From NCBI GenBank assembly GCA_022813865.1, contig JALDZX010000010.1, forward strand, positions 186,001 through 250,000: a stretch of DNA of 64,000 bases, read 5' to 3'. Position numbers and translations under genes: made by a program. Below the pieces are notes generated by a model that worked only from the letters and a program-made list of their open reading frames with translations, searched no databases and was not told the DNA's origin. Below, in pieces: positions 12,873 to 42,063 of this stretch (position 1 is the first letter of the stretch; each line of letters begins with the position of its first letter). This DNA is from Xylographa opegraphella. Taxonomy: Eukaryota.

Positions 12873-13483
12873 ATAGTGCCGAAGCATTACGCTGGGAAGC
12901 TTGGAGTGTCGTGGGAGGAGGTTTCGGTTGTCAGGATAATGCGAAAGGGCCTGCGTCTCTGATCGGGGGCATTCTTGACCTCATTAGGTGGTTCCTGCTT
13001 GCTCACTTGCACGGGCTATCTTTGCACATAGTCTACCAGAATGCAAGCGACCGATTGAAACAATCCTCTGTAAACTCGTCGAACTTCTGTAAATTGTATA
13101 GAGCATACTTGTAGGTTATCGAAGAAATAAGGTATCGAAAGATATCGAAGCTAAGTTGGCGAAGTGTCTTCGCATTGCCTTGAGTCGAAGTCGGGTATCG
13201 TTGCAATTTCCTCTTGGCGATAGGACAACACCAAAAAAGCCCATACCACCTTGGATCTCAGCTCCCACCACATTCCTTACAGTCCAGACTTTCCAGTGGC
13301 ACATGTTACCGCTCCACAATCTTTCAATGATACTGCACAACCCACGGCTACCAATGCCTTGCTCGACATGACCATCGCCTTCACCACCACCCATCCCCAC
13401 CGGCGCGGCTTCTCACCACCATCTCACAACCCAGCTCCTTAGCTCCACCACGACCTCTAATCCACCACCCACCCTCCACTACC

Positions 13484-15676
13484 ATGTCTGCCACCTCCAA
13501 AGCCACCCCTCGTCCTGCGACCACGGGCCTCACCCCCTCCGCCTCCTCCCCTCCCCGTTCCGTCCCCTCGCCTGCCCACCTGCAAGCTCCCAACTCCAGC
13601 ACCAAAGCCGGCAAATCGCCCTACAAACATCCGTCGGCTGGCACTCCTCACAATGCGTCCAGCACGCCGCACCTACCGGGCAGCACGCCACACGCAGCTC
13701 TCGGTACACCTCACGCCACGCCCCTCCCTGCCTTCGGCACCCCCACCCCGCGCTTCGACCCCATGCTCGGCAGCAGCCCCGCCACAGGCGCAGACATGCG
13801 TGTTTCCGGCAGCGAGCTGGGCATGGGCACCCCAGCGCTGAGCATGAGCGTGCTGGGCGTCGGCATGGGCCTCAGTCTCAGCAGCATGGGCTTGGGCGCG
13901 CAGCAGCTTGGCGCGAGCGGTATACTCGATCCCGGGGGTCAACAGAACGGCGAGGATGAGGCCCAGCGGCGTATGGGCGCCATCGTGCAGCTGCTGGGCC
14001 GCCGGTGGGGCCGCGTGGGTCGCGAAGGCGTGGAGCGCTGCGCCCGACGCCTCGGCCTCGAGTGTCTGTGGGAGAACAATGAAGGAGACGGCCACAGCAC
14101 GCTGAGCATCGCGGGCAACGGCCTGCTGGTCGACGTGGAATGGGTGGGCGAGCGCGTGCGGGGCGTGGTCCTGAGCTTCCCCGGGGCGGGCGGGGGCGCG
14201 GAGCGCAGCGCGGGGGTCGGGGCGGAGGTTCTACGCAGGGATTTGGTGGGGCACAAGACGGGCTACGTGGGCTTGGAGGCCTTCGCGGCCAATCTGGGCT
14301 CGCTGGCGGGCATGGACGTCCTGGGCCGCGAGGGCGTCAGCTGCTTCGAAGCCGTCGAGGGGGTGCGCGCCAGCCTCGGCCGCGTGTGGGAGTGGGAGCT
14401 CCGTCAGGCACGGACCGACATTGGCCCCGCTGTGCCGGAGGAGGCTGTCGAGCGGGAGGTACTGTGCAAACGTAGCGGCCGGCCGCGCATGCACGGCGCG
14501 GGCGCCATCGGTCTGCGGCTGGAATACTGGCTCGCGCGCCGGAGGGTGCTGCCTCGTGCCCCGGACGCCGACGACATGGACATCGACGTCGATCCCTCCG
14601 CCGCCTCACATCCCACCGTACCCACAGGCCTGCATGCTCTCCTTATCGACTGCGAGGCCCACCCCGCCACTCTGTACCCCAGCATCCGCGTCTCCGACGC
14701 CTGGGTTTCACCCTCCGTCGTCGCCACCCCAATGATGTCCCCCTCCATCAGCACGCTGTTCGTTCCGTCCCCGATTATCGACTGGCTCGACCCGCCCCCA
14801 ACCTACCTCCCCACCTCGTCCTCGTCTTCCTCTCCCTCTCCACCCCTCGCTTCACCCTCGGTTCGCTTTCGCGCCCTCCTGCGCCCACCGCTAACCCTCC
14901 CGCTGCAGAAGGCAATGGAGCTGTTCAACATCGTCGGCGCTCCCCTCACCCAGGACGCCATTCACACGACAACCTTCACGCAGCTCCTGTTTCCCGCGCA
15001 CGCGGCGTCGGCGACGGAAACGCCGCTGCTCCGGGACGCGGTCATGCGCTTTGAGCGGCGCGTCAGGGGCTATGATGGGGAGGCGGTCCGGCATCACTAT
15101 ACGCTGCTGACGGGCGCCCAGGACTGGGGGCGCACAGTGAGTGAGATCCCGTTTGCGCATCCGCGGCAGCTGGTCATGCTGCTGCCGCTGCTGCGGCAGT
15201 GGGCGTTTGTGGGAAGGTTGTTGGGGCGGTTAGAAGGGAGGGGGTTGGTCGACGTACATGGAAACGGGGGGAAAGTCAACGGGACGACCGGGCGGAGTGG
15301 CGATCTGCAACAACAGAAACCTGAGGCACGGGGGCGCGAGACGGACTCCGACACAGACTCCGATACCGATACGGACGACGGTGCTGATGGCGAGCGTCCG
15401 GCTTCGAAAACACCGCCCCGGCTGCCGAGTGTCCCGCTTCGCCGCGTCGATGTCGAGCTATCGTTGGCGGTGCCGGGGACGCCGTCGATCAGACTCGTTA
15501 TTCCGGGCGGGAGGACGGTGACGTTTCACGTGGGTCTGAATGCGGAGATTGAGGTTGAGGAGGAGGAGGGAGGTGCGGATGGTGCGGGAGGGAAGAGGAG
15601 GAAGGAGGATTGGGGGAAAGTGTTGGGTGTGTGTGAGGATTTGGGGGTGGTGGTGGAGTGGGCTTTGGAAGCGTGA
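13484..15676 (+). CDS. MED1: Mediator complex subunit Med1 (fungal type)
   Basis: 730-aa ORF. TP-rich N-terminus, then EDEAQRRM..VGREGVERCARRLGLECLWE..LSIAGNGLLVDVEW and C-terminal EIPFAHPRQLVMLLPLLRQWA, typical of Pezizomycotina Med1. Confidence 0.82.
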   Translation: MSATSKATPRPATTGLTPSASSPPRSVPSPAHLQAPNSSTKAGKSPYKHPSAGTPHNASSTPHLPGSTPHAALGTPHATPLPAFGTPTPRFDPMLGSSPATGADMRVSGSELGMGTPALSMSVLGVGMGLSLSSMGLGAQQLGASGILDPGGQQNGEDEAQRRMGAIVQLLGRRWGRVGREGVERCARRLGLECLWENNEGDGHSTLSIAGNGLLVDVEWVGERVRGVVLSFPGAGGGAERSAGVGAEVLRRDLVGHKTGYVGLEAFAANLGSLAGMDVLGREGVSCFEAVEGVRASLGRVWEWELRQARTDIGPAVPEEAVEREVLCKRSGRPRMHGAGAIGLRLEYWLARRRVLPRAPDADDMDIDVDPSAASHPTVPTGLHALLIDCEAHPATLYPSIRVSDAWVSPSVVATPMMSPSISTLFVPSPIIDWLDPPPTYLPTSSSSSSPSPPLASPSVRFRALLRPPLTLPLQKAMELFNIVGAPLTQDAIHTTTFTQLLFPAHAASATETPLLRDAVMRFERRVRGYDGEAVRHHYTLLTGAQDWGRTVSEIPFAHPRQLVMLLPLLRQWAFVGRLLGRLEGRGLVDVHGNGGKVNGTTGRSGDLQQQKPEARGRETDSDTDSDTDTDDGADGERPASKTPPRLPSVPLRRVDVELSLAVPGTPSIRLVIPGGRTVTFHVGLNAEIEVEEEEGGADGAGGKRRKEDWGKVLGVCEDLGVVVEWALEA

Positions 15677-16625: not shown

Positions 16626-17001
16626 GCGGGATGCAGCGGGGGAAGGGGGTTTCTGAGTACAGAAGCTTGCATATGTGTATGACACGATGGCTAGGTTGTT
16701 TTTGGTTACCTTGTGCTGCGGAATCGATTGGCTTGTCATTTGTTGGATGCGGTTTCTATACGACACTTGTCTTGGATGTCCCGCTACTGTAGCACGAATA
16801 TCGAGGTCCAAGAATACCTACAAAGCAGAGACTTGTTCTTGAGTGAAGCTCAGTCTGACATACTATCTCACTTCTATCACCAAAGTAAACAATGAGCCTG
16901 TACCCAAAATGGTATAGTTCGTCGAGCAAGAAGCGATTGCTCACGCCAAGAACCCCACAGCCTTATCAAAGCCCAGGCACTGCTTCGAAACCCTCGCCTT
17001 C

Positions 17002-19242
17002 ATGCCAGATGAAAACCTCTGTGACCATTGCAACTCCCTTGATTTCGGTACTATTCGCTATATCCCGTGGTCCGGCACACCAGAGGATTACACGCCGCTG
17101 TCTCATGGCAAGCCAGAACGGAGCGTGAAAGACGCCATTGAAAAAGCCAGTAGCTGCTTCCTCTGCAAGCAGGCCGCCCAGCTGTTCGTCGACCTGAGAG
17201 ACTCCGATGCCCGGCCTGCAACGGACGATCCGGCCGCTTTTGCGTACCGAATCGAGCACCCATCCAAACATTATGCTTGGGCGGAACCGGAGGACCCGGC
17301 GGGTGTGTTCGGCGCGCTCCTGCGTCTCAATATCGAAATCTCTTGTCGAACCACGCCGACCCTATTCGCGGAGAGGATTTTCCTCAAATGCGGGCCGGCG
17401 ATACCCCATGTTGATGCATTCTGCAGGGACGCGTCTTTGGTTGAGTGGGAGATGACTGGGACGCAAGCATTTGATGGTCGAATCCGCCCACTTGTTGCCA
17501 ACACTCGCCTCTTTCGTAAGTGGAAAGAAAGCTGTTCGGAGCGGCATGGCGGGAAGTGTCAACGAGCCGTGAGCATGTCCCGCCCCGGCGCGCTGCGCTT
17601 TATCGATGTGGTCGATCGGTGTATCGCCGAGGTTTCCAGTGACTGCAGTTACGTTGTTTTGAGCTACGTTTGGGGCTCAGTGGCAACGTGTGTGTTGACC
17701 AAATATACAGCGGCGACGTACGCGCAGCCTGGCTCGTTAAGCAGAGACCTGGTGCCGGCGACTATAGAGGACGCCATGGCCGTCACCGCGGCTCTTGGCG
17801 AGAGGTACCTCTGGGTTGATAGGCTGTGTATTGAGCAGGACAACGAGGCCGACAAGGCTATTTTCATACCCCAGATGGCTGCCTTGTATGGGTGCGCTGA
17901 GGTCACGATAATTGCTGCGGCGACGATCGATGCTCACGGTGGGCTACCGGGGATAAGACCATTGACGAGGAGGGTTCAGCAGGACCCTATTTCTTTAAAC
18001 GGTACAACTTTTATGGCCTCGTTGGAAAACTTTACTGGTCTATTTTCCAACTCCACACGGGACAAAAGTGTACGGGGGACGTCCAACTACAACACACGCG
18101 GTTGGTGCTTCCAGGAAAGGTACATATAGAACTGACGAGGACGAGATGCTCAACACTGCACTGACACTTTGTCATTCAGGCTTCTGTCTGCTCGATCGCT
18201 CATCTTCTCCGAGGAGCAAGTTTACTGGGAATGTCAAACCGCAAGTTGGTGTGAAGAAGCATTCTGGGAATCTGGAACCTCACGTTCTCTCTATCGTCAC
18301 TACATGACCGATTACGGCCCAATGTATCGCCTTCCCTGGAAACCCACTCCGCCTGGCTTGGAAATCCTTTACCGGCATTTGGCGGAAACTTATTCGGGCA
18401 GAGTACTCTCGTTTCAGACCGATGAGCTGAACGCTTTCCAGGGTATCCTACACCTTTTGACGGAAGGCTTCCGAGAAGAGTTCTTCTGGGCACTGCCAAC
18501 CACTTATCTTGAAGAAGCGCTTAAATGGGGTGCTGCTGCCCCGAGAACTCAAACACGCAACCGTGGGACTCATACTCAGATAGGACCTTCCGGTGGCGTT
18601 CAGCAAACTCCGTTCCCCAGCTGGTCGTGGATTGGATGGATAGGAAACAATTACATAAGTGCGTACGGATCGGCATGGACCGGCGCACACAGCTTAGTAT
18701 TTTACTGCCTGAACAACGACGGCAGAGTTGAAAAGATCGGTAAAGAAGCCGTCCAGAGAGGAACACCCGAACACCACAGTCCAGAGCGTGCCGAGCCAAT
18801 GCCGATGCGGGAGCGACGCGTGGGAAGGGGGAAGCAAGGCAAATCTGACCTCCCCTCGTTCTACGACACCGCAAGAACGGTCATCACAGAAGACCATATA
18901 CCCTCCCACATTCTTGGCAGCCCATTGGCCAGCGTAGTCCTCTGCTTCTGGACCAGCACCGCCGCTGTCACTGCGCAAAGCGACTGGAACGGTCGCGTTC
19001 GGTTCGCCCAAGGAAGCCACTCCGTCTCCGTGCGAGAGGAGGCATCACCTATAACGTATGAACCAAACACCACGCAGTCCCAAGAACTCATTCTGTGCTG
19101 CCGTTCGTTGACTACGAATTCCATTTTCTGCCTCGTTTGCTCTGTAGCTAATGGTATTGCGTATCGTGAGCATGTGGTTCAGGTGCAAGAGTCGCATTGG
19201 CAAGGGTTGCAGACGGTGTGGAAGCCGGTTATTCTGGGCTGA
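17002..19242 (+). CDS. HET-domain (PF06985-type) heterokaryon incompatibility protein
   Basis: YVVLSYVWG, PATIEDAMAVT..LGERYLWVDRLCIEQD, QMAALYGCAEVTIIAA, YNTRGWCFQER|LLSARSL, FPSWSWIGW. 60-nt intron 18120-18179. Confidence 0.92.
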
Positions 19243-27021: not shown

Positions 27022-27495
27022 TTAACTGGACGTTGAGCCTCTTGACAGTCTCTCCCTGAGCCAGTCCTTGCTTCTCTCTCCGACACCCCGATCACTTCCT
27101 CCACTCCCTCCAGAGCTGATACTGCCAGGCCTTTGCGTCGTTGTGGTTATCCTCCGCTCGTCTAATAGGTTCCCGACTCCACCCCTTCCGATGTGGTACA
27201 CTGGCGCCATGCCCTCCGAACCTCTCTGCACTCGCTCGAGCTCCTCGTCGAAGCTGAACATGGCTCGTTCCGAGGCCGGATATCTGTTGCCAGCTCCGCC
27301 GCGCCCGGTAGTGCATTGGCGCGATAGTGCAGACGGATGAGCGGATCCGGCTTTCGAGGTCGATCTGATTGGACTGGGTGGTGTGGACGAGGCTGCCGGC
27401 TGATAGCGGTGATAATTGCCTGCTCCGCCAATGCCGGTATGGACGTACTTTGTCGAGGGCACGGAAGGGTGGGGAGAGGTGACGTGCGTGGGCAT
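27022..27495 (-). CDS. DUF3602 / Par32-like protein with GRGGAGN repeats
   Basis: Three motifs: TGIGGAGNY, TGRGGAGNR, IGRGGVGNL, plus FSFDEELER. Start at ATG 27495 (MPTHVT). Confidence 0.85.
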   Translation of the reverse strand: MPTHVTSPHPSVPSTKYVHTGIGGAGNYHRYQPAASSTPPSPIRSTSKAGSAHPSALSRQCTTGRGGAGNRYPASERAMFSFDEELERVQRGSEGMAPVYHIGRGGVGNLLDERRITTTTQRPGSISSGGSGGSDRGVGERSKDWLRERLSRGSTSS

Positions 27496-27731
27496 GATCA
27501 CAGCTTGTGTGTGTTCTGGTGCTGGAGTGGCGATGGAGGAGGTCTCGGTGCTCGGGGGGTAGTGTTTTGATATATGTTCAGCAAGGAGGACTTTACAACA
27601 CAAAGACAACCTTCCTTCTAAAATGCAAGCTCACGATATGTGTTATCCAAAGCTACCTACCAGAACTACATATATATATATATATATTATATACACCCCG
27701 AACTTGGTACTTGGGATTACCCTTCCGGGAC

Positions 27732-27845
27732 GGGAGAGGGAGCAGGGCTGCTTTAGGGGGAGCACCGAGGGAGCACGGGGGGGGCCACTGAGGGAGCGAG
27801 GCGAAGCACTACGGGGCAGTGCAGGGGCGCAGCAGGTGGGAGCCT
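27732..27845 (+). repeat. Subterminal GGGAGC(A) repeat array, left end
   Basis: GGGAGC at 27738, 27758, 27769, 27792, 27838, with degenerate copies in between. Confidence 0.75.
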
Positions 27846-28499
27846 GAAATGGATCTCCCCTGTCTCGGCTTAAGCTGCCTCTATGCTTTTCTACTGCTTA
27901 GACTTCGCCACTTCCTATGGGATTCTATAGCCAAGCTAAAGAGATCGTAAGACGCCTTAACAAGCGAAAGCCTGGGCAGTTTTTTTCACCCGTTCTATAT
28001 CGTCGAGCCAATCTTACGTTAATCCAATCCTTAGTAAATCCTCGCATTGGACAGCCCCTTTCCAGCGGCCACGGTGAAAGACGAAGTCTGATTTACATGT
28101 CCATATAAATCAATGAGGTTTTGAAACGTCCACCGTGGATAATTAGGGCTTAAAATACCATGTTTGAACACAGCATTCTCAAGGTTTCTGACGAGAGATA
28201 GGTGAGAAAATGCTGAAAGTAGAAATCCGTTGGAGGAACATATGACTGCTTACGAGCTAATGGGGAGAGCAGCGTCAACTTTAGGATTTCGAAGTATGAA
28301 ACGTATGAGCCTGCACAGTAAAAGGCCGATAACCATCAAGTTTTTCGCAGAGCAGTGCGCTTTGTTCGGTTTATTATTTTAAGAGCGAAGAAAGTTCATC
28401 AAATCTGTAAACACAGTCTATTGCGACCTTGAGCCTGAACAAGTTAAGTTCAATGTTGCAGTTGGCTCTCGTGGAGTGGAGTAGAGGAAGCAGGGCAGT

Positions 28500-29508
28500 T
28501 GTCAATTGCTGGTCACAACTTCTCAGAGCTTTAGGTAAGATTAAGATTGTTATTAAACACGAGAAGAGGTCTCGTCTACCTGGGAAGTCTACCTAGTTAT
28601 ATAGGCATTGTTTTGGGGATCTGGTTTGGCGGTCCAGGGTGTTCATCTCCTGGGAATCCTGAGCATCCTGAACGCCAAGTCCTGGGACCCTGCCTTGCTC
28701 CTGGGAGCGTACTGGTCCTGGGAGACCGTTCTTGTGACCATTGTCCAGGAAACGGTTCCTGCTGTTATTTCACTAAGATTCATCATTATCTAGTATTTCG
28801 GGTGTCGGTGAAACTAGAAGAGATCCCGACGAAATGCCGCACCCACTGTAACGGCGTGTTACATCGCACCTCGGCAATGGAGAGGCGGAAGGGGACTAGA
28901 GCGCATCAGGGGTTCAGGCTAGTATAAAAGTAGTTAGGAGTCTTGGCGCTGAGTTTGTGTCAGCGAGAAAGGCTGACTAAGCAAATAGTAACCTTAAGTA
29001 GCGGAAGCTTAAAACCTTGAACCAGTAGAATAACCAATCAGTGAATAATTGTAGATTGAATGATTGATATTCTAAGATGGGGTTTAAGCCTCCGTCGATG
29101 GGCACTTGATGTGGTCTTTTTCGGCATGATGGGGAAAGAAGCTGCTGGAATTCTTTCGGAGCAAGAATCTGGCGGGGGGAGCTAGTGTTAAGGTTCGGCC
29201 AGTACCGTGGGACACGGGATCGGTAGAACCCTATACCGGCTGACTCCTGTGCCTCGTTAGGAGGCAACGGAGGCATACTAAGGAACAGGACTTCTATATA
29301 GAGTGGAGGATTTCCTTTGTTATGGGAGGCGTGTTCAACTCCTGTTATGATCTAGCTTATAGAATAAGAACCTTCAATACAACTCTGTACGAAAACTGTT
29401 ATCTCTTTAAGAACGATAAGCCTGTTACTGTGCCTTCCTATTCATTCATTGACGAATCCAACCCAGATCCTTGATCAAGCTGTACCAGTGATATTCAGGA
29501 TCGTAACA
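28500..29508. mobile_element. Nested LTR fragments
   Basis: An LTR start at 28847 (TGTAACGGCGTGTTACA..GGGACTA..CAGGCTAG) is similar to the LTR at 33316. A second short LTR-like piece TGTTATGATC..GATCGTAACA lies at 29343-29508. A possible reverse LTR end is at 28500. No clean TSDs. Confidence 0.55.
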
Positions 29509-29821
29509 CTAATTTAAACAGCGTAAAAGCTTCGCACTAATCTATCTAATTTCCGTCTTCAATATGAACTGAATCGAATAAGTAGTTATTGCACAATGGT
29601 AATCGATAGTGAGGTGAGTTTTGGGGTGGGGGGGTGTGCATGGAGTGAGGCCATGCACGGACCCGTGAGGTCTTCTATTCCTGCGTTTCACGTGCGCGGA
29701 ATATTTCCATGGTTCTAACAACCTCTAGAGCAAAACCCTGAATTGCGTCGAATTCACAGCTGGGAAGTCTTGTCGACTTGCGCAGGCAGAACCAGGATAC
29801 AATTCTCTAGCCGCTATCACT

Positions 29822-32328
29822 ATGTCGGCTTTCGATATCATTTCCACGCTGAACATTATCGTCAATCTGGGTCTCGACATCAAAGCCCGGTTTGAGTCGT
29901 TGAATCAAGCTGCCGAAGAGATTAACCTGTTAAACACCAAACTTCGCCTTTTGTGCAAGCTCTTTGAGGATCACGGGAATGATGACATAATTACGACCTA
30001 TGTATCAGAGATTGCGATGATCGTGGATATCGTGCAGAGCATTGCACAATCGTATACAAAATGTGCAAAGGCCCTAGGCGTCGAAATCCCTGCGACGAAC
30101 ACTGCGACTTCAAAGCCAGAGGCACGTGGCAAGAAATATGTCAAGCGATTATGGGCTTTCTACAAGATTCCTGATCTTCTCGATGAGATTCAACGCAAGG
30201 CGGAACAACTTGAAAAGGTATATGGCGCAGTGTCTATTATGCTTCTCTACGACATTAGGACGCGACAGAGACGGTCGAGCGAGAGTGGAATCATTGAATC
30301 TAACCCCGTCCCAAAAATTTCAACTATACATGAACACTTGCTCGAGGTGGGCCTCAGCACGGAATTTGCAAGCATCGACCTGATGGTGGGAAACCTCATG
30401 AAGGAATGCAAACTCCTTCGACAACGACTGCAAGAGGTCACTCTATATCCCGACACTTCGGCCGTTGAGGATTATCAAGAGCAGCATCCAGAAGGAGCGT
30501 CGTTCTGGAGGGATCGATTCCAGAAGGACGAACTTTGCGCCTCTACTCTTCGCTATGAGGTAAGGAGCTCAAGTTTTCTTACTGTCTTCCCTTCCTGAAT
30601 TCCAATATAGCTGCATCGTAAGATATTGACACGTTATTGATTGACAGACGCTGTACGTTTCTTGGGCACGCTTTGTACATGAGATTGAAACGTCTTTTGT
30701 TCTCAAAAAAGTACCAACTGGGAATTTTGACCCCAGAAATATCAATCTCGTTCGCAAGCAAGGATCCCGCTATCGTATCGATCAAAACGGCATGCGTTGT
30801 CTTTCCACCATCCGGCCTCTCTGGCTTCCTGCTCTCCGATCTGCTCTTGATCCGCTGCACAAGGGCTATGTCAAGCCTCGAAACTTCTTCAGTGTCCTTC
30901 ACGACTCCTCCCTGTCTGATACACTAAGAAGAATAACCCTCGAATCCGCAGGCTATGGTATACTTGTCGAATGTGAAAGGGCATCGGGGGATCTTCCGTT
31001 GCCGGCGGTATTTGAGTCCCCTTCCGATCACGTCGGCTGGACCTCTGCCCAAATCGTGGCCGTTCCAACATCTAATGAACTTGGAATCTTTACCGAACGA
31101 GACTCCATAGGCTCAAGCAGTGAACTCCTCTTCACTTACTTCAAAGATACCATTCAAGACGTTCACGTTTACGTACGCTATCTTGAGACTGGTCAAATCG
31201 AGCGTAAAAGTCTTTCGAAGCAAATTCGTCCGATCGGGGGCATTTCTATCGGCGCTCCATTGTCTATTCGACATGAGCTAAAATCAGGTGGCCATGCTTG
31301 GAGCTGCGACCTTCACATCACCGAGTTCAAGGCATGTTACGGGGGGCAGTACATCATCACGACGGGTGTATGTTCGAGTGCTATTGAGTTTTCCACGAGA
31401 CCTCTTAAGAATTCCTTTGACTGGATATTACGCGACGACGATAATTTCTCCTTTTCTACAGCATTGAAGTTTGACTATAACCTTTTGGGGCCGTCGAAGG
31501 TATTTACCGACCCACCTAAAATTGGCGAAAAGGTTCAGGTATGTATTATTCTGCTAGAAAACTATGCGATACATCTATCGAGGTGCGGTTCTTATTCTGT
31601 GGTTTAACCAGATTGAGTTCGACGGATTTTGGTACGATGCGAGAGTCACGGCGGTGGACGGCGATGAGATAGAGTATTTCGATTGGGACGTTCCAACTAA
31701 TACGACAGAAGCTCTGGACGATAGTCAAGGGGATGAGAATGATAGCGGCAGCCTCTTCTTTCCCGAAGAGCAGTTGATAAAGCTCGGCAAGGGCTCGCGG
31801 CGACTGTGGCGACCATGGCGAAGAAACGTACAAAGGTACGACGTCCGACCTTATCGTTGCTTCCATATCGGCGACTCTATTGAAGCACCCGTCATGTACC
31901 CGGATTTCCGATTCCATTACCATACTATTGACACTTCGCATCTTTACCTTCCTGCTCGAATCGTCGACGTCCAAGGCGACAAGTATGTCATCCGATTCAG
32001 TCCGGCGCTTTCGGCTCACGGGTGGTGGCCCGGGAGGATGCCGAAGGGTCAGCCAATAAACCTCGTGCCAGGATTAGACATAAGGGTCGAAAACCCATTC
32101 GACTTTGATCGAGTAACGGTAGACATGGATCGGGTCCGCCCTTTCTCTGCGGGGCCACGACCGGTTCTGGGGGTCCAATCAATTAAGCCGTCTGGGTGGA
32201 GTTTGTTTCAGGGCGTTCATCTCGGCAATCTTGAGGATCTTTTAGAGCGGAGTCTCTGGAGAAACAACCACGATCCTAAGAGAACAGGTGGACAGAGGAA
32301 CCAGAGCCTATTCGTCAATGAGGAATAA
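29822..32328 (+). CDS. 781-aa multidomain protein: HeLo/MLKL-like helical N-terminus, Cbl-like EF-hand, two Tudor/Agenet-like domains
   Basis: Exons 29822-30559, 30648-31538, 31612-32328 splice in frame (GTAAGG..ACAG; GTATGT..CCAG) with no stops. Domain calls are by motif resemblance only. Confidence 0.8.
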
Positions 32329-33315
32329 CTGTATCGTATTGTCTCAGCAGGACATCGGAGCGGCAAGTATATTGGATTTGGGAAGGATGTTAGTAGGCGA
32401 AGCCGCGGAAGAACGAGGCAAAGCGCATATCTATCGGGCTTGGTATGTTACGGGTTGTACGTTGGAATGTGACGCAAAACTTAGGACCGAGATTATCTGT
32501 GAATTTCTGACTAACGAGCCTTCTCCATAGGAGAGTGTCACAATTTATGCTGTTGTACCAGGTGAGAATACTTCCTTACTATACTTGCTCGTGGGTCAGT
32601 GTAATAAAGTGATGTTCTCTTTTACCAGTGTTGGAGGGTTCTAAGGTTCCAAGGAAACTCTGAATGCGCGAACGCTCTTAGTGGAAAATGAGACTCAACT
32701 GTAAATGAGGATGATTTGATGTCAATAGCATTCACTTGTGCGATAAGTCTAAAGACTTAGGATCTATCTGAGGGTGTTGGTCCTAGCTGGTACTTATAGA
32801 CCAATTTTTGTAAGATTGAGTATAATCCTCCTCTTTTATGTAGAGAATATCGTGGTCTCTATATACCAATGTGATCGATGTGATCGTAATATTCTGTTGT
32901 GATCTGGTTCCTATACTCACCTGGTACGGGATACGTCTCACATAAAACTGTTTCGAAGGATATCAAATACGGTGTTATAAGGTATGAAAGTAGTATTGAC
33001 TATGAAATAGCTAAAACCATATAGCAAGGTTCATAAGGGAGATTGACTACGAGAATCTTATCTAAACTGTGGTAACGAGCGTCTTTATATAGACTCAGAA
33101 CTCTACGAATAGTGCTGATCCCCAAGTAGTAGTAGTATTAGTAGTAGTAGTATTAGTAGTAGTAGTATTAGTAGTAGTAGTATTAGTAGTAGTAGTAATA
33201 ATAGTAATAGTTCCTTATTCATTAGCTGACCCAGCCGCGGAAATCGCTGGCTAAGCAGTTCTTACTAGTCAGACTTCGGCGCCTAAGGCATCCAAGAACC
33301 TCGCCCGATGTAAAG

Positions 33316-33547
33316 TGTAACGGCGTGTTACATGGCACCTTAACAAGTGATAGACTGAACGGGACTAAAGCGCGTCCGGGACTCAGGCTAGNNNNNNNNN
33401 NNNNNNNNNNNNNNNNNNNNNNNNNNNNNNNNNNNNNNNTCTACGTGTATTACTAAACTTGCTTCCTTGTATTATTCTAGGTTGAAATCGCTCACCTATA
33501 GCTGAGGTTCTAGGCCTGCTTTTCTGGTGAGATAGCGAGCCGTAACA
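33316..33547. mobile_element. LTR insertion (solo LTR, or element collapsed in the N gap) inside the LINE 3' region
   Basis: Termini TGTAACGG...CCGTAACA, 5-bp TSD TAAAG at 33311-33315 and 33548-33552, N gap inside. Confidence 0.88.
33393..33439. other. Assembly gap (N run)
   Basis: Run of 47 Ns. Confidence 1.
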
Positions 33548-34549
33548 TAAAGTACTTTAAATCCACTATTGCCAGCAATGGGCTAATTTAGTTCTTGTTT
33601 TTCCCCTATCTAAAGTTGGCGTGTGCCGGATATTGTAACTTCTACCCCTAGTAATAGGAGGCACTAGGCCTATTGTACCGGGTGGTTACTTCTAAATTGC
33701 CCCAGAAGCCCCGTTCCCCATATAAATTTGGCCGGGTTTACTGCATATTTTGGGACCGTGAATAATATGCGGAGGCCTATGACCTTCCGTGATTTATGGT
33801 GAATGCCAAATCTATATTCTCACTCTGTTGTCCACATCCTCTCCATTGCTTCCCTGAAATTCCTGCAGCTTATGAGAATATGTGGCACCGTCTGCCCCCC
33901 CTGTCCGCACGAACATTGAGGGCCTTCGAAACCTGAAACCTTTTTCCGTGCAGAAAATCTCTCAATCCGATTTTGCCTGTTCGCAGTTGGATGACGACAG
34001 AGCTTATCAACCGGTGGGTAGCCTTATGTAAGAACCTTCTTCGTTGATTCCGGCGTGAATCGACGTAGGTGGGATCCTCTCGTTTCGTTTCGCCAGACTT
34101 ATCCATTTCTTTTTTATAGTGTCTCGAACCACGGTGTTTATCGCGGCTGTTTGTGGGTGAAGGTAATCGGGATGTTCTACCTCCTCTGACGGGGATGTAT
34201 ACGATTGTCTTGGTCTCCATCTGCGGCCTCTTTTACGGCTTTGTCGGCTTCCTCATTTCCAAGTATGCCTGTGTGAGCTGGAATCCAATGGAGTTGAATG
34301 TTCCACCCCGATTCCCTGAGTGGCTTCGACATCGTGAAGGCTCTTTCGATCAGATATTGCCCTGATGATTGTCTTGGGTAGACTATCGCCTTAATTGCCA
34401 TGCTGATCCCCTGCTGATCGTTTCAGATTAGTAACCAAGCCGCATCACGTGATATATCCCTCGGCTACTTTCCTCCGTATATATGAGTTGTTTTTAGTAG
34501 CAGTCCTCGCCCTCATACATCTCCTTGCCCATCCTCTGTATCCGATTCC

Positions 34550-36083
34550 ATGGAAAGCTGGCTGAAAGAATCTGGAGCGGTTGGCCTGAACGACTTGGAG
34601 CTCGCCAATTTTCAGGTCACCGGGCGTGGTGTTAGATCACTGCAGTATTTTAAGGAAGGAGAGAGGGTTCTAACCATTCCATTTGGCATTCTCTGGACAG
34701 TCGAACATGCATACGCTGATTCCCTTCTGGGGCCAGCCCTTCTCTCTGCGCAGCCGCCCTTGACTGTCGAAGACACCTTGGCGACATATATCCTCTTCGT
34801 CCGATCACGCAAGTCGGGATACAATGGCCTGCGAAGCCATGTGGCGGCCTTACCTACGAGCTACTCTTCAAGCATCTTTTTTACCGAGAACGAGTTGGAA
34901 GTCTGCGCTGGGACCTCACTGTACACCATAACGAAGCAGCTAAAGCGACAGATTGAGGAGGACTACGCGGGATTGGTCGCGCGAATTTTTGGACAGTATC
35001 AAGATCTTTTTCTCCTCGACCAAATCACTATCGAAGATGTAGGTGTTACATGTATGATGGATGTTACGAATCAAATGCTAACCTGTATTTCCCTTACTTT
35101 TAGTATAAGTGGGCTCTCTCCACTGTATGGAGTCGTGGGATGGATTTTGTGCTGCCGGATGGAAATTCGATTCGATTGTTGGCACCCTTCGCGGACATGT
35201 TTAACCACTCTTCTGAGGTTAAGCAGTGTCACGTCTACGATCCGTCGTCCGGAAATCTCTCTGTCCTTGCGGGGAAAGACTACAAAGTCGGAGATCAGGT
35301 ATGTTCTTTTTGTTCTCTGACAGTACTAGATTTGTGGTTGTAACATGGGACATATTCTTTCAGGTTTTTATCAATTATGGTCCCCTTCCGAATAGCCGCC
35401 TTTTACGTCTCTATGGCTTCGTCTTATCGAGTAATCCCAACGACAGCTATGATATCGTCCTTTCAACGCACCCCACGGCCCCTTTTTGGGAGCAGAAGCA
35501 AAAGCTCTGGATAACGGCTGGACTGGATTCGACCTGTACCATCTCCCTCACTCTTACCGATCCGCTACCGAAAAATGTCCTTCGATATCTCCGTATTCAG
35601 CGATTGGACGAATCAGATCTCTCCGTCATACAAGTCGACGCTACGGATGGAATAATTAACGAATCGAATGAGGTGGAAGTTTTGCAGTATTTAGTGGACT
35701 CATTCTGTGGTCTTCTGGAAAATTTCGGAATTCAACTAGAAATGCTAGAAGAACAACTCGCAGCGAGCGTCTACCCTCCGGGAGAGAACGCATGGGCCGC
35801 GGCGCATGTCAGCTTGGGCCAACAGCGGGTGTTGAGATTGGCGAGGAAGAAAGCGGAGGATCTATTAGCGGTGGCAGAGAGCGAACGTGCGAGAAGGGGA
35901 GATTTGTCGCCATTGGCACGATGCGCGAATTGCGACAAGGTTTCTGGGCCTTTCATGCTATGTGGGAGGTGCAAAGCGGTGATTTATTGTACGCGGACGT
36001 GTCAGGTCGCTCATTACAAAGAGCACAAGGTCGTATGTCGAGTCATAAGTACAGCTTCAACGAATGGTTCGGAGATAAAATAG
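34550..36083 (+). CDS. SET-domain protein lysine methyltransferase (Rubisco-LSMT/SETD6-like) with C-terminal MYND zinc finger, 467 aa
   Basis: Exons 34550-35038, 35104-35298, 35364-36083. GRGVRS, WALSTVWSR, LAPFADMFNH, GDQ|VFINYG..NSRLLRLYGF; MYND CANC..CGRCKAVIYCTRTCQVAHYKEHKVVC. Reading frame intact. Confidence 0.92.
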
Positions 36084-36529
36084 AAAGATCTTCGACCAAT
36101 CCACTTTTTGTGCCACCCGTCTTCAACTGTCCCTGAAACAGCTTTTGCGGCCCTGCATTGGCAGGATTTTGTTTTGGCATTGCGAACTTCTTCTGGCCTG
36201 TATATTGTCGAGACCTGTAATACTAAGATTATCAAGAGTGCAATTGCCAGGATATTTCTCTCCAGCCTCTATCTCCCGGCAGTTCCATCCTCAACACTAA
36301 GACGAGTTTCCCGGGCGGTAATGGCTTTGATACCACATGCATACTCTCCGTGTCACGACTGGTAATGCGTCTTTCCTTGCGTCCTGTTTTCTTTCACGCG
36401 CTGTCTCAACTCCTGTTGTGGAAATCGTAAGCCCGGATCCGAGAAAGGCGCCTTCTCTCATCCTCAGCGCTATGTCGATCTCTCTACCCTAATTCCTTCG
36501 ACGTACGCCTGTTCCTGCCCTTAGAGCCG

Positions 36530-36858
36530 CCCTCTATGCTACGCGAACTCGCTTTGCAGCTTTAGAGCCGATTTTTCGTGCAGCATTTGATTACGGACTT
36601 GTCTATCCGTGGCGAGCATTAGTAACATTTGCGCCGGAAAAGGTATTCAGCGATTTGATCGAGGCGATGTTGGGTGCGATACACATTGATACGAACGGAG
36701 ACTTAAAGGCTTATATCGCTATTTTGCGGAGGTTCGGAATGCTGGAGTGGGTGGAAACGGCGTTGAAGAACAACGTTCAGATCCGGCATCCGAAGGAAGA
36801 GGTCGGCCGTCTCGCCGGGAATAAAAAGGTAAGATATCATGTGTGGACAGTGAAGTAA
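36530..36858 (+). pseudogene. Fragment of Dicer-like 2 (end of RNase IIIb into dsRBD)
   Basis: YPWRALVTFAPEKVFSDLIEAMLGAIHIDTNG..RRFGML..HPKEEVGRLAG..VRY matches the fungal DCL2 C-terminus. The rest of the gene is absent. Confidence 0.75.
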
Positions 36859-36859
36859 C

Positions 36860-37794
36860 CTTTTATGCGGTGTTTCCGAAAAGCCTTTTGCGTCTTTTAT
36901 AAGTCGCACACCAATTTCCGCCTCTCCCTTTTCATTCTTGAAGATAACGAAGTCGATTGTCTGCTCGCAGCGTAAGCACGATGCTCGACTACTTTCTTGG
37001 TCGGCAGTGCTTTGTAGGATCAGTCCACTCACCTCATATAGTAGTCCACGGCCGGAGCCTCTGCGCATATTCGATTCAAAATACTCGCCTACTCGCGCCA
37101 ACGAATAGATGAAAAGCATATAGACAGCGTAATCCTGGAGGAGGATCCTCCCATGTCTGTATTGATGCCAATCCTTCATCTACATATGTTTGATCACGAT
37201 AACGAAGTGGTTCACTGTCGTGAAGTGCCGAGTTCGCCGAGTCGTTGAAAGGTTGAACTTCTTGCGTAGCTCGGTTTGTATGTACTAGTAAGATCATCAG
37301 CCCCGGCAAGTAGAGAGGAAGAGCAAGTCGGAGATCGGGTACGAAGAAAAGAAGGTAGACTCCGACACGTCAGGAGGAATCTTGTCGTTGCCAGGCCGCC
37401 GTTTCCAACCGGCGCCAAAGTTTGTCCATTTCTGAAGCATATAATACATAGATGGTTCCTTCTCACCGGCGCAGCAGCCGCGCACAACACCCTTCATAAA
37501 GTGCTTTGTCGTTTTCAAATGGTGGGGGCTTGCGCCAGGATTTCTCCTCCCATATCTGTTCCAGTAAAACGAGACATAGTTAGTAAGTATTTTATAGGAC
37601 TTCGTAACAACAGGGAGAGACGTGGAGACCTACTCGTCCCAAATGACCAACATTCGGTTATAGTTTACTTCAGTACAGGACTCGATATGCTTAGAGACCG
37701 TATCGCCATCGATATCGGCGTTGTTCAGAGACTCATGGCCATTTGATTCCGCATCATCGAAGAACTACGCCGCAGTCTTCTTATTCTTCACCAT
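36860..37794 (-). pseudogene. Truncated DUF3435 tyrosine recombinase (Starship captain) pseudogene
   Basis: Spliced reading MVKNKKTAA*FFDD..NYNRMLVIWDE|Y..KHFMKGV..QKWTNFGAGWKR..IPPDV..RRTRHF..KHM*MKDW..IYSLARVGEYFESNMRRGSGRGLLYE..FVIFKNEKGEAE..KDAKG. Two TAG stops; C-terminal half missing. Confidence 0.78.
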
Positions 37795-38127
37795 TGGAGA
37801 CTAGGTAAAGGGGGGGATTGTAGCTAGACAGAACTACCCTGGCCACTAAGGCGTATACAGCGAAGAGAGAAAGAGAGAGAGAGATGAGAGTGGATATTAG
37901 ATAACAACGTATATAGTGACGCGTTTGGTACACTGACGGGTTACTGCAGGACGTAGGTGACCAGAAGTGAAGGAAAAGAGCGAGAGGGCAAGAGCAGAAG
38001 ATAACATGGTGGGCGGTCGGTAGAGCCATAACCGGCTCCTCTCTGATCAGCATCCAAAACAGGCTGACCTGACGCTCTCGCCTAAAGTTGTAAAAAATCA
38101 TTACCAGCTAAAGAGAAGGAAGTGGCT

Positions 38128-38203
38128 GAGGGGGAGCACGGGGGAGCGGCGAGGGAGCATTGGGGAGCAGAGGGAGAGTATATCGACGTTAGCGGGGGAG
38201 CAA
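38128..38203 (+). repeat. Subterminal GGGAGC(A) repeat array, right end
   Basis: GGGAGC at 38132, 38142, 38153, 38163, 38196 and GGGAGA at 38172. Confidence 0.8.
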
Positions 38204-39547
38204 AGCGGCGGTACCTGAGTCAGCGGACGGTCACGTGTAGGCTTGGGTTGGGGGATGCTATATATATATATATATCACAAAAAATCCCCCCCGCAAAATC
38301 CTGCAAATCACGCACCACATCACACGCCCCTTCGCCGTCCGTGAGATCTCTCTTGCCCGTTCCCTCCCTACCCGTACGAGACGCGCCTTGCAGTTAACGG
38401 CAGCCGCTTTGCAGTTAACAGCTACCCGCTTGCGTATGGATTACTCAATAGCTCCCTTCCCCGCCAAAGCGGCGTTCCCGGAAATCCTCCCTCCCGTCCA
38501 CCATCTCGAAATTTTCCGCCCTTGCGTTTGCCGGTCATGTTTTTGCGGAGCCGAGCGTGCCAAGACGGAGTGCCGCTTTGGGTGACGAAGGGGGGGGGCG
38601 AAACGTAAGAGAAATCGGGAGGGCCAGTCGCTGCGGGCACGGTGCGCTGCGCTGCGCTTGGTGGAGACGGGGCCTGACTTGGTAGAGCTATTTCGAGAGG
38701 CTGGAGGGGGAGAGGTTTTCTGGGGGTAATGGATGGGTAATGATGGAATTGTCGGTGAAGAGGGGGCTCTTCTTAGGGAGTGGTGGCTTCGTTCGAAAGG
38801 GACGCCTTGGCTTGGGGTTGGTGGTGATCGCGTGAGTACCCTTCCAGAATGGCTGACTTGCTTGGGGGGAAATATGGCTTCGAGTCTGGCTCGTCAGCCG
38901 GGGAAGTTTTGGCTGAATGGGAAGTAGTGTTCTGGTCATCTCGCCCTTGGTAATGATGAATGATTCTTATGGCTTTTCTTCATCTATTCACGTCTTCGAC
39001 GACTTCTCTGCCATCAACAGTCTATATACAATATTCAGATCATTTGCTGTCTCTTGTGTATGGGGGCCCGCTTGGGCCTGTTCATATTGAATGACCCATC
39101 CATGTGAATTGCAGATCTCCTCTTTTTGCTATATATGATTTATGGAAAATGTGACGCCGTACCCCAAAGCCTCACAATAATCGGTTACCTTTTCAATTTG
39201 AACATCAGTCATTTGTTACCAAGTTCCCAATAATTCTCTGGTAATCCAGTTCAAATATTCAAACCCTCCTCCAGTTGTTCACCGCTCGCGGCTCTTCCAC
39301 AGCCTTTCAACCACCTTCAAGCATTAAATTTCACATGCAGAAATTTCCCCGTGAAACCTTATACTTCGATTTTCCGTGAATTGCACACTTTTTAGTAGTA
39401 TGCTGAGAATCTTAAGTACCAAGATTACGTATGCTGCGAGGTCCATCTCTGCTTAAATATGAGTCCTGTACCTACCTTCCTTATTACTTCTCCTGTTCGG
39501 CGTAAATCCATTTCTCCCTACACGAAAAACAGGAAAGATTTTTCAAA

Positions 39548-40867
39548 ATGTCATCCACCAGCCCCCATATCCCAGAAGCTTCCGCTCCGCAACATGAAGT
39601 GCAAGACGCGCCGTTCTGGACTGAGGATCCGCCCTCGTACGACACTTTCAAGAGCGAGGTTGAGAGCTTGCTATCTGGGGATTCTGCAAAGGTAGCTGCC
39701 AATCTACATTCCTCTAAATTTCCCTCTTTCGTCTGTATTGGGGTAGATACTACGCGGTTCTTCTAACCCCGCTGTATTAACGGATAGTTACTTGGGCTTC
39801 CACTATCAGCATTAGTTCACTATTCTCACGAAGATAGTCCATAACACTGGAAGCTGCAAGCTACATGAACTATACTTCGCACCTGTAATTTCATTATCAT
39901 ATCAGAGCAATGTGGAACTGCTTCCTTCCTTCCGCTCTCTCCGCCCCTTCCATACTGAGATATCAAGGAAAGCTTACTGTGTTTTATGACAGGCACGAAG
40001 CGGTCACCGAAGACAAACGGCAGGAGTGATGGCTTCCATTCGTTCCTTCCGAGAGAGCATCCAAATGCAAGTCATATTTATTTTGCTCTCAACATGTTGC
40101 CCTCCTGCAGACCTCCAGTCGTGCATGAATCACCAACACCAAGAACTCATACCCCAATCCATACCTCAAATCCACACCCAAATCCACAATGCCATTGACG
40201 GATTCAGAAGCCACCTCGGGCGGTTTCTACGTCGGTGTGGTTGGTCTGGTGCTCGCCGCTGTCGAGTTCCTCATTGTCTGGGGCCGCCGTGGTTACGGTC
40301 TTCTGGCGTACGTAACATCGTGATCGCCCATGGCGGAGGGTGCCATATACATGAATAACAGTGGGAACAATCGTTTCGAATTGCATATGCTAATATATAC
40401 TTTTGGAAACATTTAGTCGTTGTGGATGGGCGAGGCCCTCCTATATACCTCCTACGGAAGCCGAGTACAATGGTCTGCAGGGGGATCTTCAGGAGGCGCA
40501 GGATCGCGCTGAGAACGCGGAGGACCGCCTCATTACTGCGGAGGCCAGCCTCACAATTGCATAGGCCCGCCTCACGACTGGAGAGGCCAGCCTCACAGTT
40601 GCAGAGGCCCGCCTCACAACTGCGGAGGCGGGCCTCACAACTGCAGAGGCCTGCCTCACGGCTGCGGAGGACCTCCTGGGAGCAGAACGTCAAGCGCACC
40701 AAACCACGGTGCACGAGCTGGCCGAAACTCATCGCAATGAGCTTGCGAAGCTGCAGAACGACCGCATGGTCGAAGCAGAAGCCAGATACAGGGCTTCAGA
40801 AGCCAGGAACAGGGAGGAACGGGCGGAAAGGATGCTCCTGCTTCGCTTGGTGCGACGGCGCCGCTAG
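39548..40867 (+). pseudogene. Multi-exon coiled-coil protein gene with 21-bp tandem repeat and an in-frame TAG
   Basis: Last exon reads AEDRLITAEASLTIA*ARLTTGEASLTVAEARLTTAEAGLTTAEACLTAAED..LVRRRR*. Upstream exons (e.g. MSSTSPH..DSAK|GT) are tentative. Confidence 0.45.
40517..40676 (+). repeat. 21-bp minisatellite, ~7 copies
   Basis: Unit approximately GCGGAGGCCCGCCTCACAACT. Confidence 0.85.
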
Positions 40868-41106
40868 GGGTTGTGGCGGCTTGATCGTATGTAAGGGCAG
40901 GGTGATACCGCCGTATAGAGATATCCACACTTCATTTGTATTATTATGCAAGGTATGTGCGACGAGTAAGCGATAGAACGAGGCTCGGAAGAGTTCAATA
41001 TATGATTATGATATGAAAGTCCCATTTGCCATGTGATCTGAGACGATCCTAACAGATGCAAAAGGCTGACAATGCACAGATCTGCCATTGTATGATAGCT
41101 GGTACG

Positions 41107-42063
41107 TTAGAGCTTTTCAAAGGTCGGCTTCCGCTTCTTCACACCCGCCTGCATTGCCACCGGCACATCACGCGATTGTAGAGCGGCGCCATTCCAGATC
41201 TGGGTGTATCGAAGACCTGAAGGACATCAGTCCAGACAAGCCAACAATCAAAGGAGCCACTTACCATCATGTACGGAGTGGTCGCGGGACCAGTTCAATA
41301 ATTCCTTAGTACCTTGTACAGCCACTGGACTCTTGCTTGCAACCATAGACGCCCACCTGACTCCTTCCTCGACAGCCTTGGCCTTACCAGGATACACTGC
41401 ACTCACTAAGCCCACCCGGAGAGCCTCCTCCGCGCCGAATACTCGAGCAGTGAGGCAAACGTCTTTGACCCAGCTGTAATGACCGACAACTTTGGGTAAC
41501 CTGCTCAACGTTCCTACATCTGCAGCAAGTCCAATGTCTACCTCCTTGACAGAGAGTCGAGTATCGTCAGAACAGATTCTTACGTCGGCGCAGATCAGCA
41601 TATCGACTCCAAGGCCATAAGTATATCCGTGCAAAACACAAATTACTGGCTTTTCACATCGCTCGATAGCTGTGATGCAATCCTGAAATTCCAGCAGTTG
41701 GCGACGAAGCAGCGTCGCAGCGCGCGCTGGGTCAAGAGTTGAATGTTCAGTGTTGGTAGCAAGGGCCCCAGATTGAGTTGCAGCGTGTACATCCAGACCG
41801 GCGGTAAAGGCTTTGGCGCCTGCACCACTAAAAACAATTGCTCGAACCGAGGGAGAAACGGAGAGTATTTCGAACACTTCACGAAGCTCAAGCCACATGC
41901 TGCTCAATGTTAGTGCCAACCTCAGGACAATAGCCGCTTCAGCATACGCTTGAAAGAAGGAATTCAGCTTATCGGGCCGGTTGATTTCGACATGAGCAAC
42001 GTATTCCGCTGGAGAAGAGACATTGAAGTACTGCAACTCCGGTAGCTCCAAGGTTGGTGCCAT
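41107..42063 (-). CDS. Delta(3,5)-delta(2,4)-dienoyl-CoA isomerase (crotonase family, ECH1-like)
   Basis: VEINRPDKLN, AFTAGLD, ERCEKPVI, VKEVDIGLAADVGTLSRLPK, KSPVAVQGTK. In-frame 48-nt intron 41900-41947 and a second intron near 41217-41264. C-terminus KRKPTFEKL*. Confidence 0.92.

Follow-up and report, generated by a model that had tools for sequence, protein, structure and literature searches.

A counterpart of the Podospora het-v gene pair, a candidate methylation writer and reader, in transposon-rich DNA of Xylographa opegraphella

Two spliced genes and the domains they encode

A stretch of 64,000 nucleotides from the fungus Xylographa opegraphella (GenBank assembly GCA_022813865.1, contig JALDZX010000010.1, positions 186,001 to 250,000 of the forward strand; hereafter the window) holds, amid transposon debris, two adjacent genes which are almost certainly the counterparts of the het-v incompatibility locus of Podospora anserina. 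Gene A (29822..32328, + strand), the het-Vb counterpart, has three exons (29822-30559, 30648-31538 and 31612-32328) and encodes 781 aa. Gene B (34550..36083, + strand), the counterpart of het-Va and of SET-9, also has three (34550-35038, 35104-35298 and 35364-36083) and encodes 467 aa. The two introns of gene A (30560-30647, 88 nt; 31539-31611, 73 nt) and those of gene B (35039-35103 and 35299-35363, 65 nt each) all run GT..AG on the + strand. Both spliced translations are uninterrupted, and the exon translations abut with neither gap nor overlap on homologues of the same length, namely P0001 (781 aa; 93-96% identical) for gene A and P0074 (467 aa; 89-91% identical) for gene B. In close relatives of the window strain, genes A and B are transcribed and their transcripts are spliced at the modelled sites. 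This follows from contigs of four public runs aligned to 29700-36200, of which three are RNA runs from three studies, labelled as lichen metatranscriptomes or as a coded organism and all from close relatives 95-99% alike to the window. Both gene B introns are absent from the contigs of all three RNA runs and both gene A introns from those of two (X15 and X17); contigs of the remaining run (X2, recorded as 'DNA?') retain all four introns. The first-pass annotation of this DNA, made from its letters alone, had predicted two intact, co-oriented genes at these positions, and the open spliced frames, the exact homologue joins and the RNA splicing bear it out.

Gene B looks like an active protein methyltransferase. 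Its Pfam matches are Rubis-subs-bind (3.4e-21) and zf-MYND (1.2e-10); SET scores weakly because an intron splits the SET domain, and precomputed Pfam annotation places PF00856, PF09273 and PF01753 in most of 117 homologues. A profile built from 56 sequences of the family finds SETD3 (2.4e-49), Rubisco LSMT (2e-42) and SETD6 (2.7e-15), whereas SMYD chains are matched only through their MYND finger (profile positions 413-460; about 1e-9). A SMYD protein has its SET domain interrupted by the MYND finger and carries a TPR-like domain after it. Gene B shares with them the possession of both a SET domain and a MYND finger, but its finger (residues ~415-453) stands at the far C-terminus, after Rubis-subs-bind, and is not inserted in a split SET domain. 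The succession of SET and Rubisco-LSMT substrate-binding domains is that of SETD3, Rubisco LSMT and SETD6, from which gene B differs by the additional C-terminal MYND zinc finger. The profile matches, with SMYD similarity confined to a terminal MYND, therefore place gene B in the SETD3/LSMT class and rule out a SMYD-type enzyme, so that the 'SET-MYND methyltransferase' of the first-pass annotation is right as to both domains and wrong as to the class that this name implies. N197, H198, Y233 and eight MYND ligands are invariant in the 56 sequences and all are present in the window protein, which has an NHS motif at 196-198 and keeps the catalytic Tyr233; in the family alignment as a whole 58 residues are invariant. 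A predicted complex of gene A (residues 205-735) with gene B, modelled without alignments and without controls, gave an ipSAE of 0.00. Docking of the MYND finger on a PxLxP motif in gene A was rejected as a candidate, the motif being absent from the window protein and found in 2 of 48 family members, in non-conserved columns.

The product of gene A is harder to classify from its sequence. A search with exon 2 returned 72 fungal proteins, including a Podospora pseudoanserina 'MLKL and TUDOR domains-containing protein' that is 72% identical to P0001 over the full length, and six homologues carry the source name 'Fungal N-terminal domain-containing'. There are 53 invariant residues in the family alignment. 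An AlphaFold2 model of P0001, built with 48 sequences (mean predicted local distance difference test score, pLDDT, 68), has a helical N-terminus of low confidence (residues 1-235, pLDDT ~50-60) and a better-defined middle and C-terminus. Taken with the structure matches, it suggests that the protein probably consists of a helical bundle (residues ~1-235), an EF-hand-like domain (~211-348), about four Tudor-like barrels (~348-735) that enclose a disordered insert (569-600), and a disordered tail.

No Pfam model reaches its curated threshold in the window protein or in the 48 members; below threshold, Tudor_4 appears in 30 of 48 (best E 0.0012; on P0001, 17.0 bits vs a cut-off of 25.8), Agenet in 4 and PWWP in 2. 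A C-terminal-only profile (12 sequences) had no match in the PDB at E up to 10, and the full profile returned nothing but coiled-coil noise from PDB sequences. At the level of fold, a five-stranded SH3-like barrel is present (Z 5-9). The best Foldseek matches of the model are the tandem Agenet protein AGDP3 (1.9e-4), the SETDB1 triple Tudor (3.8e-4), MBT and FMRP (E 1.9e-4 to 1e-2), and VIA-align finds the tandem Tudor/Agenet domains of FXR1, FXR2, FMRP and ADCP1 (Z 8.6-9.2). A separate model of exon 2 (pLDDT 76; all three matches at Z < 8) adds two further small barrels at its residues 102-196 and 195-281, which resemble Tudor, PWWP, chromo-barrel and Agenet domains (Z ~5-6). The Tudor folds of the first-pass annotation are thus recovered, probably as four barrels. 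Near-invariant aromatic columns of the alignment, which might contribute to an aromatic cage for a methylated ligand, include W550, W568, W609, W612, Y639, Y646, Y655, Y668, F672, W681 and W682. Gene A has repeated SH3-like barrels in common with the tandem Tudor/Agenet readers (FMRP/FXR1, SETDB1, AGDP3/ADCP1), and differs from them in its sub-threshold Pfam scores, its probable number of four barrels and its long disordered insert.

Residues ~211-348 match the EF-hand of the Cbl-family TKB module (Z 8.4-9.6, root-mean-square deviation (rmsd) 2.1-2.5 Å, 84-89 residues, 18-20% identity), as do residues 1-101 of the exon-2 model (Z 6.5), and the paired helix-loop-helix EF-hand fold is found there. 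Canonical calcium-binding EF-hand loops, 12 residues long, have by consensus acidic or polar residues at positions 1, 3, 5, 9 and 12 and glycine at position 6. In the best loop of gene A, DPLHKGYVKPRN (314-325), the residues found at positions 3, 5 and 9 are L, K and K; the usual ligands are missing there, and calcium binding is therefore doubtful. Of the EF-hand that had been proposed for this protein, the fold stands and the canonical calcium loop does not.

Correspondence to het-v and linkage across fungi

According to the published account, het-v of P. anserina comprises het-Va (Pa_5_12720), a 469-aa SET/Rubisco-LSMT/MYND protein homologous to Neurospora crassa SET-9, and het-Vb (Pa_5_12710), a 771-aa protein with HHpred similarity to MLKL in residues 1-140 and to TUDOR in residues ~535-675 (Ament-Velasquez et al., 2022; PMC9262711). 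The V allele carries both genes, and in V1 a transposon cluster replaces them. V/V1 incompatibility requires het-Va, het-Vb and Tyr233, and het-Va alone, its activity not being required, triggers the NOD-like receptor HET-R (PMC9262711). Those authors proposed that Va deposits a methyl mark, that the Tudor region of Vb reads it and that the MLKL/HeLo domain kills. They also reported synteny in Sordaria and Neurospora, recurrent pseudogenisation and loss, introgression and presence/absence turnover, and found 63 and 125 matches in 2027 fungal genomes, with loss in Neurospora (PMC9262711). Synteny or distribution may already be covered by their supplementary Figures 9, 13 and 19 and their supplementary Table 6.

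We regard the orthology of genes A and B with het-Vb and het-Va, respectively, as close to certain on the grounds of sequence. The homologues of gene B exon 3 include PODANS_5_12720 (67% identity) and SET-9, and the two loci share the same two protein families, sizes and domain order, Tyr233, the adjacency of the genes, and a setting in which they lie in, or are replaced by, transposon clusters, with presence/absence dynamics. The Xylographa locus differs in its host, which belongs to another class (probably Lecanoromycetes) and whose best hits suggest a lichen-forming member of the Teloschistales, in its tandem arrangement with ~2.2 kb of transposon debris between the genes, and in the presence of the block at several genomic sites. 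The first-pass annotation had proposed a methylation writer and reader for cell death or allorecognition, which agrees with the genetics of, and the proposal for, the orthologous Podospora pair (PMC9262711). It had also stated that it knew of no description of such a system, yet one exists: essentially the same model was published for het-v. The core idea is therefore not new, and the pair is an already known system in a new host and not a new kind of system. Later work seems sparse: a literature search on het-Va and het-Vb gave, beyond Ament-Velasquez et al. (2022), only one relevant preprint, on het-B, and nothing that joins het-v with Starship elements. Papers on the SET-9 methyltransferase of Neurospora, to judge by their listing, do not deal with its function.

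The first-pass annotation had staked its idea beforehand on linkage of the two genes in other fungi, and linked they are. Judged from the hit lists of A and B, with equal contig size taken to mean the same contig, the genes share a contig in 21 of 23 informative organisms (Pyricularia oryzae and Rhizophagus irregularis were left out as uninformative). The two genes bear consecutive locus tags in eleven of these: Trichoderma harzianum, T. virens, Xylaria bambusicola, Orbilia blumenaviensis, Ustilaginoidea virens, Dichotomopilus funicola, two Ophiocordyceps species and the Glomeromycotina Entrophospora, Ambispora and Racocetra. Among the remaining 10 are Gigaspora and Jimgerdemannia (Endogonales). 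A scan of metagenome contigs yielded 19 loci, 12 of them with long flanks, which collapse to 7 distinct ones when near-identical loci are merged, and B adjoins A within 2 kb in 6 of the 7. Head-to-head genes, their start codons 750-1615 bp apart, are seen in L004, L006 (= L007, L012), L009 and L011, and tandem genes in the window, L001 and L002/L003. Intron positions of both genes are conserved in distant loci: gene models drawn at the positions homologous to those of the window are open for A and B in L006 and L009 and for A in L005, the B model of L011 ends at 430 aa, and L004, which may be a pseudogene or have other introns, gives no open model for either gene at these positions. One RNA contig from a relative (X15 record 1, 4795 nt, as long as the one contig recorded for the cluster of P0001) joins spliced A and spliced B 5'-to-5' on opposite strands, with the joint at 29721/34479 and ~289 unmatched nt between; this suggests overlapping divergent transcripts in a relative with the ancestral head-to-head layout, the alternative being an assembly mis-join.

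Quick IQ-TREE trees of 21 linked pairs, rooted on the single Endogonales row (Jimgerdemannia), have the same main groups for A and B. The Glomeromycotina form one clade (starred) and 16 ascomycete rows another in both; the Trichoderma trio is recovered, and the window takes its place among the Sordariomycetes. A grouping with support of 100 unites Cadophora (Leotiomycetes) with the Dothideomycetes Periconia and Tothia. In approximately unbiased (AU) tests, Sordariomycete monophyly was not rejected (p 0.144 for B, 0.373 for A), whereas monophyly of Sordariomycetes plus Leotiomycetes, a constraint chosen after seeing the trees, was (9e-11 for B, 1e-6 for A). Hidden paralogy would explain this rejection as well as transfer would. 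Incongruence at class level as proof of horizontal transfer is thus only partly supported: Sordariomycete monophyly is not rejected, and the grouping of Cadophora with Dothideomycetes alone is significant.

A relocated block amid transposon debris

Genes A and B and the spacer between them form the core of a block (29737..36185) which is common to the window and to L001, L002 and L003 at 95-98% identity and whose flanks are unrelated. Against L001, where the shared span is wider (about 29665-36092 plus 36387-36824), blastn aligns the window only over 29680-36092 and 36387-36824, and against L002 and L003 only over 29735/29777-36185, in each case at 95-96% identity, and no blastn match to the window lies in the 10-kb flanks of the three loci. 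What L001 has in common with L002 and L003 is confined to a 6.07-kb block (98.0% and 97.5%); L002 and L003 agree over a 14.9-kb stretch at 97.9% and are therefore the same locus. The aligned common edges fall at ~29737 on the left and 36185 on the right. A 6.1-7.1 kb block with both genes thus occurs in at least three unrelated genomic contexts. L001 is flanked on both sides by DNA of 22-27% GC, L002/L003 by a transglutaminase-like open reading frame (ORF), a DUF2921/RING ligase and a peptidase M16, and the window block by a DUF3602 gene to the left and an enoyl-CoA hydratase to the right, with transposon debris in between.

All copies of A and B in L001-L003 are open. Relative to these loci, gene A of the window has a nonsynonymous divergence (dN) of 0.025-0.027 and a synonymous divergence (dS) of 0.044-0.050 (ratio 0.50-0.60), and gene B a dN of 0.026-0.031 and a dS of 0.063-0.067 (ratio 0.40-0.50). 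Non-coding positions of the block differ by 4.8-5.2%, equal to synonymous sites (dS 0.044-0.067), and the sharp edges of the block are therefore not due to selection. These comparisons argue that the 6-7 kb block has very probably moved between genomic sites, and recently. A search of 27400-41200 found no terminal repeats bounding it, within the limit that an element could exceed the window, and the moved unit already holds dead transposon pieces, which points to movement as a segment or within a larger carrier rather than as a small autonomous transposon.

A further set of loci, L015-L017 (locus coordinates 8148-13032), carries a copy of A altered by repeat-induced point mutation (RIP), together with its 3' flank and a segment that in the window lies upstream of the block (27677..28676), and is without gene B. 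C>T and G>A changes account for 738 of the 806 differences in this copy and fall mainly at CpA (344) and CpG (310); the copy contains 67 stop codons, its ATG now reads ATA, its GC content is 0.24 and its remaining divergence is ~2%. The segment 27677-28676 may be part of a larger ancestral unit. L017 and the intact L002 share an assembly prefix, so that a single sample may hold both kinds of copy, intact and RIP-mutated. Thirteen sequencing runs (X2-X14), 12 of them labelled rock metagenome and one (X9) a coded organism, each contain 27-33% of the words sampled from the 6.5-kb stretch, X2 being the one that was aligned; copies nearly identical to the pair seem to be common in rock-surface communities.

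The spacer between the genes (32870..34435) is made up of transposon debris. It includes a minisatellite of AGT-rich 15-nt units (33116-33229; 7 overlapping copies of a 42-nt reference), a 76-nt repeat resembling a long terminal repeat (LTR; 33316-33391) that is a direct repeat (80%) of a fragment left of gene A (28847..28922, +), an ORF (33870-34232, - strand) which, judging by eye, we take to be like the tail of a long interspersed element (LINE), and an RNase_H fragment (34180-34422, - strand; Pfam 2.5e-6). Two RNA contigs (X17 record 6 and X20 record 18) run from transposon-derived sequence at 33563-34377 straight into exon 1 of gene B and show a 57-nt difference at 34377-34435; transcription of gene B may begin in this debris or pass through it.

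To the right of the block lies a truncated gene for a DUF3435 tyrosine recombinase, the 'captain' type (36850..37794, - strand), of which tblastn recovers roughly the first 250 aa, so that no intact captain is present. An ORF at 36706-37179 (- strand) matched seven longer proteins, six of which carry PF11917 (DUF3435), the best at 65% identity (E 5.9e-33). The cut end of the stump (~36850) and the right-hand end of the L001 match (36824) are 26 bp apart. At the 19 related loci, no match to DUF3435 appears within flanks of at most 10 kb on each side, less on short contigs, in which RIP mutation could hide one. Starships can far exceed 10 kb. What is present, therefore, is a decayed DUF3435 gene, and carriage of the pair by a Starship stays conjectural. 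Searched against Pfam, 28 small ORFs in the island yielded the RNase_H fragment and, beyond that, just two weak matches at chance level; no Dicer, RNase III or helicase piece is found among these and 31 larger ORFs, and an ORF at 40359-40973 has no Atlas match. The first-pass annotation had pictured a decayed island with a captain, a LINE, LTRs and a Dicer piece in which A and B were the only intact genes: the captain survives as a stump, the LTR-like repeat is seen and one ORF resembles a LINE tail by eye, the Pfam scan of the ORFs yields no Dicer piece, and the two intact co-oriented genes are there, their exclusivity being unsupported as ORFs without Pfam matches remain. Its suggestion of Starship association and addiction finds no backing in a truncated DUF3435 gene without a match in the flanks covered at the related loci.

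Elsewhere in the window, two adjacent long ORFs at 16918-19239 (+), the first with a HET domain (PF06985, 6.4e-30), place an incompatibility-type gene ~11 kb upstream of the pair. An uninterrupted ORF of 1506 aa at 1188-5705 (-) has no Pfam match at E up to 0.001, and a Mediator Med1 gene (13331-15673, +; 3.4e-84) coincides with a local GC content of up to 69%, compared with the usual 45-55%.

Function of the pair and competing readings

On balance we favour, with some reserve, a reading in which the pair is orthologous to het-v, acts as writer and reader of a methyl mark, has been rearranged from the usual layout and has been relocated as a block. By orthology, gene B would keep a cellular target methylated and gene A would read the methylation state of that target. 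Were cytoplasm from a cell without B to be mixed in, the naive target that it brings would become newly or partly methylated, gene A would be switched on and the fused cell would be killed, the N-terminal helical domain of A being the putative executor, as is thought for Podospora. In this lineage, the usual head-to-head layout would have been rearranged to tandem, with dead transposon pieces between the genes. By analogy, it is plausible that the pair also functions in death or recognition in X. opegraphella itself, and we would put the chance of this a little below even.

Several observations weigh against this account. A HMMER search of 1.84 billion representatives with the gene A family profile returned 86 proteins (E up to 1e-3), almost every one a fragment from the same family, and found no other architecture and no outside relatives. 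Among structures, the N-terminal bundle matches only generic helical bundles, including the pore toxins ClyA and AhlB/C, at Z up to 13.3, a value that the structure tool itself counts as noise for helical proteins; none of the 50 matches listed is MLKL. PigL_N (PF17111) matched one of the 48 members (E 0.016). The HeLo/MLKL-like identity that the first-pass annotation assigned to this terminus thus stays unconfirmed, the model offering a low-confidence generic bundle in its place. Gene A does resemble HET-S, HELLP and MLKL in that an all-helical domain heads a fungal incompatibility protein, but its helices, themselves modelled at low confidence, are much longer than those of a compact four-helix bundle, and neither Pfam, HMMER nor structure search lifts the link above background. 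In Trichoderma barbatum and Mollisia scopiformis, A and B lie on contigs of different size. The dN/dS ratios of 0.4-0.6 indicate only moderate constraint, which fits relaxed selection or some diversification. Finally, conservation into the Glomeromycotina and the many invariant residues would also fit ordinary cellular signalling.

That last point can be extended into an explanation of its own, which we consider unlikely: an ancient signalling pair, in which a SETD3-like enzyme and a multi-Tudor scaffold serve a housekeeping target, incompatibility in Podospora is a lineage-specific side effect and no role in death or recognition exists here. Such a pair might well stay conserved, with its genes side by side, in Pezizomycotina as in Glomeromycotina and Endogonales, share a promoter, as the head-to-head layout suggests, and keep its intron positions and its 53 (A) and 58 (B) invariant residues; the nearest solved relative of B is the actin-histidine methyltransferase SETD3, and the death domain of A is unverified. 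It would not be expected to form so small and patchy a family (86 representatives, mostly fragments, and 63 and 125 matches in 2027 fungal genomes, with recurrent pseudogenisation and loss in Neurospora; PMC9262711), to lie at different sites in transposon-rich or RIP-mutated DNA, or to be under only moderate constraint among close copies. The N-terminal half of gene A could also be a module like the TKB of Cbl, a four-helix bundle and then an EF-hand, which would make A an adaptor or regulator instead of an executioner; we hold this to be improbable. In Cbl a four-helix bundle does precede the EF-hand, residues ~211-348 find the EF-hand of Cbl, Cbl-b or Cbl-c in most of the 50 matches listed, and none of these is MLKL. 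Bundle and EF-hand cannot, however, be superposed jointly on Cbl (the only joint alignment has an rmsd of 16.5 Å), the domain that comes next is Tudor-like and not SH2-like, and the model is of low confidence in just this half. The HHpred similarity of residues 1-140 to MLKL (PMC9262711) and the six homologues named 'Fungal N-terminal domain-containing' likewise speak for something other than Cbl.

A more radical possibility, which we judge to be a minority one, is that the pair is, much as the first-pass annotation had it, a selfish addiction cassette that kills fusion partners or progeny without it and travels aboard a Starship or some other large carrier, here decayed. The block is found in at least three contexts and has left a RIP-mutated copy, it moved with dead transposon pieces already inside it, which implies a larger carrier or segmental transfer, and a DUF3435 fragment abuts it; monophyly of Sordariomycetes plus Leotiomycetes is rejected in both trees, albeit post hoc, and introgression and presence/absence turnover are reported for het-v (PMC9262711). 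On the other hand, the ~250-aa stump at the edge of the block resembles a disrupted neighbour rather than a carrier, the flanks covered at the 19 related loci have no DUF3435 match, the block lacks bounding terminal repeats, Sordariomycete monophyly survives the AU test and the phyla are cleanly separated in the A and B trees. In its widest form, to which we give no greater credence, the het-v pair would be a horizontally mobile, self-preserving cassette that relocates within fungal genomes and from one to another on a larger carrier and has spread in this way across Pezizomycotina and perhaps to arbuscular mycorrhizal fungi; by killing the cells or fusion partners from which it is lost, it would persist even where RIP has degraded the surrounding DNA.

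The orthology with het-v that underlies our preferred reading matters because in het-v the modification state of a protein seems to be the trigger, as it is in few fungal allorecognition systems. To what was known of it, the present analysis adds that the pair is kept together across fungal phyla, that it is expressed in lichen fungi, that it has been rearranged to tandem and that its block has changed genomic address and left RIP-mutated copies behind. Together, these widen het-v from a curiosity of Podospora and the Sordariales to a widespread, and possibly selfish, module. The natural sequence variants and the finer domain map, with its EF-hand-like domain and several Tudor-like barrels, can be used for mechanistic tests. 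Should the mobile cassette prove true, the pair would be a eukaryotic analogue of the bacterial toxin-antitoxin addiction module, based on protein methylation.

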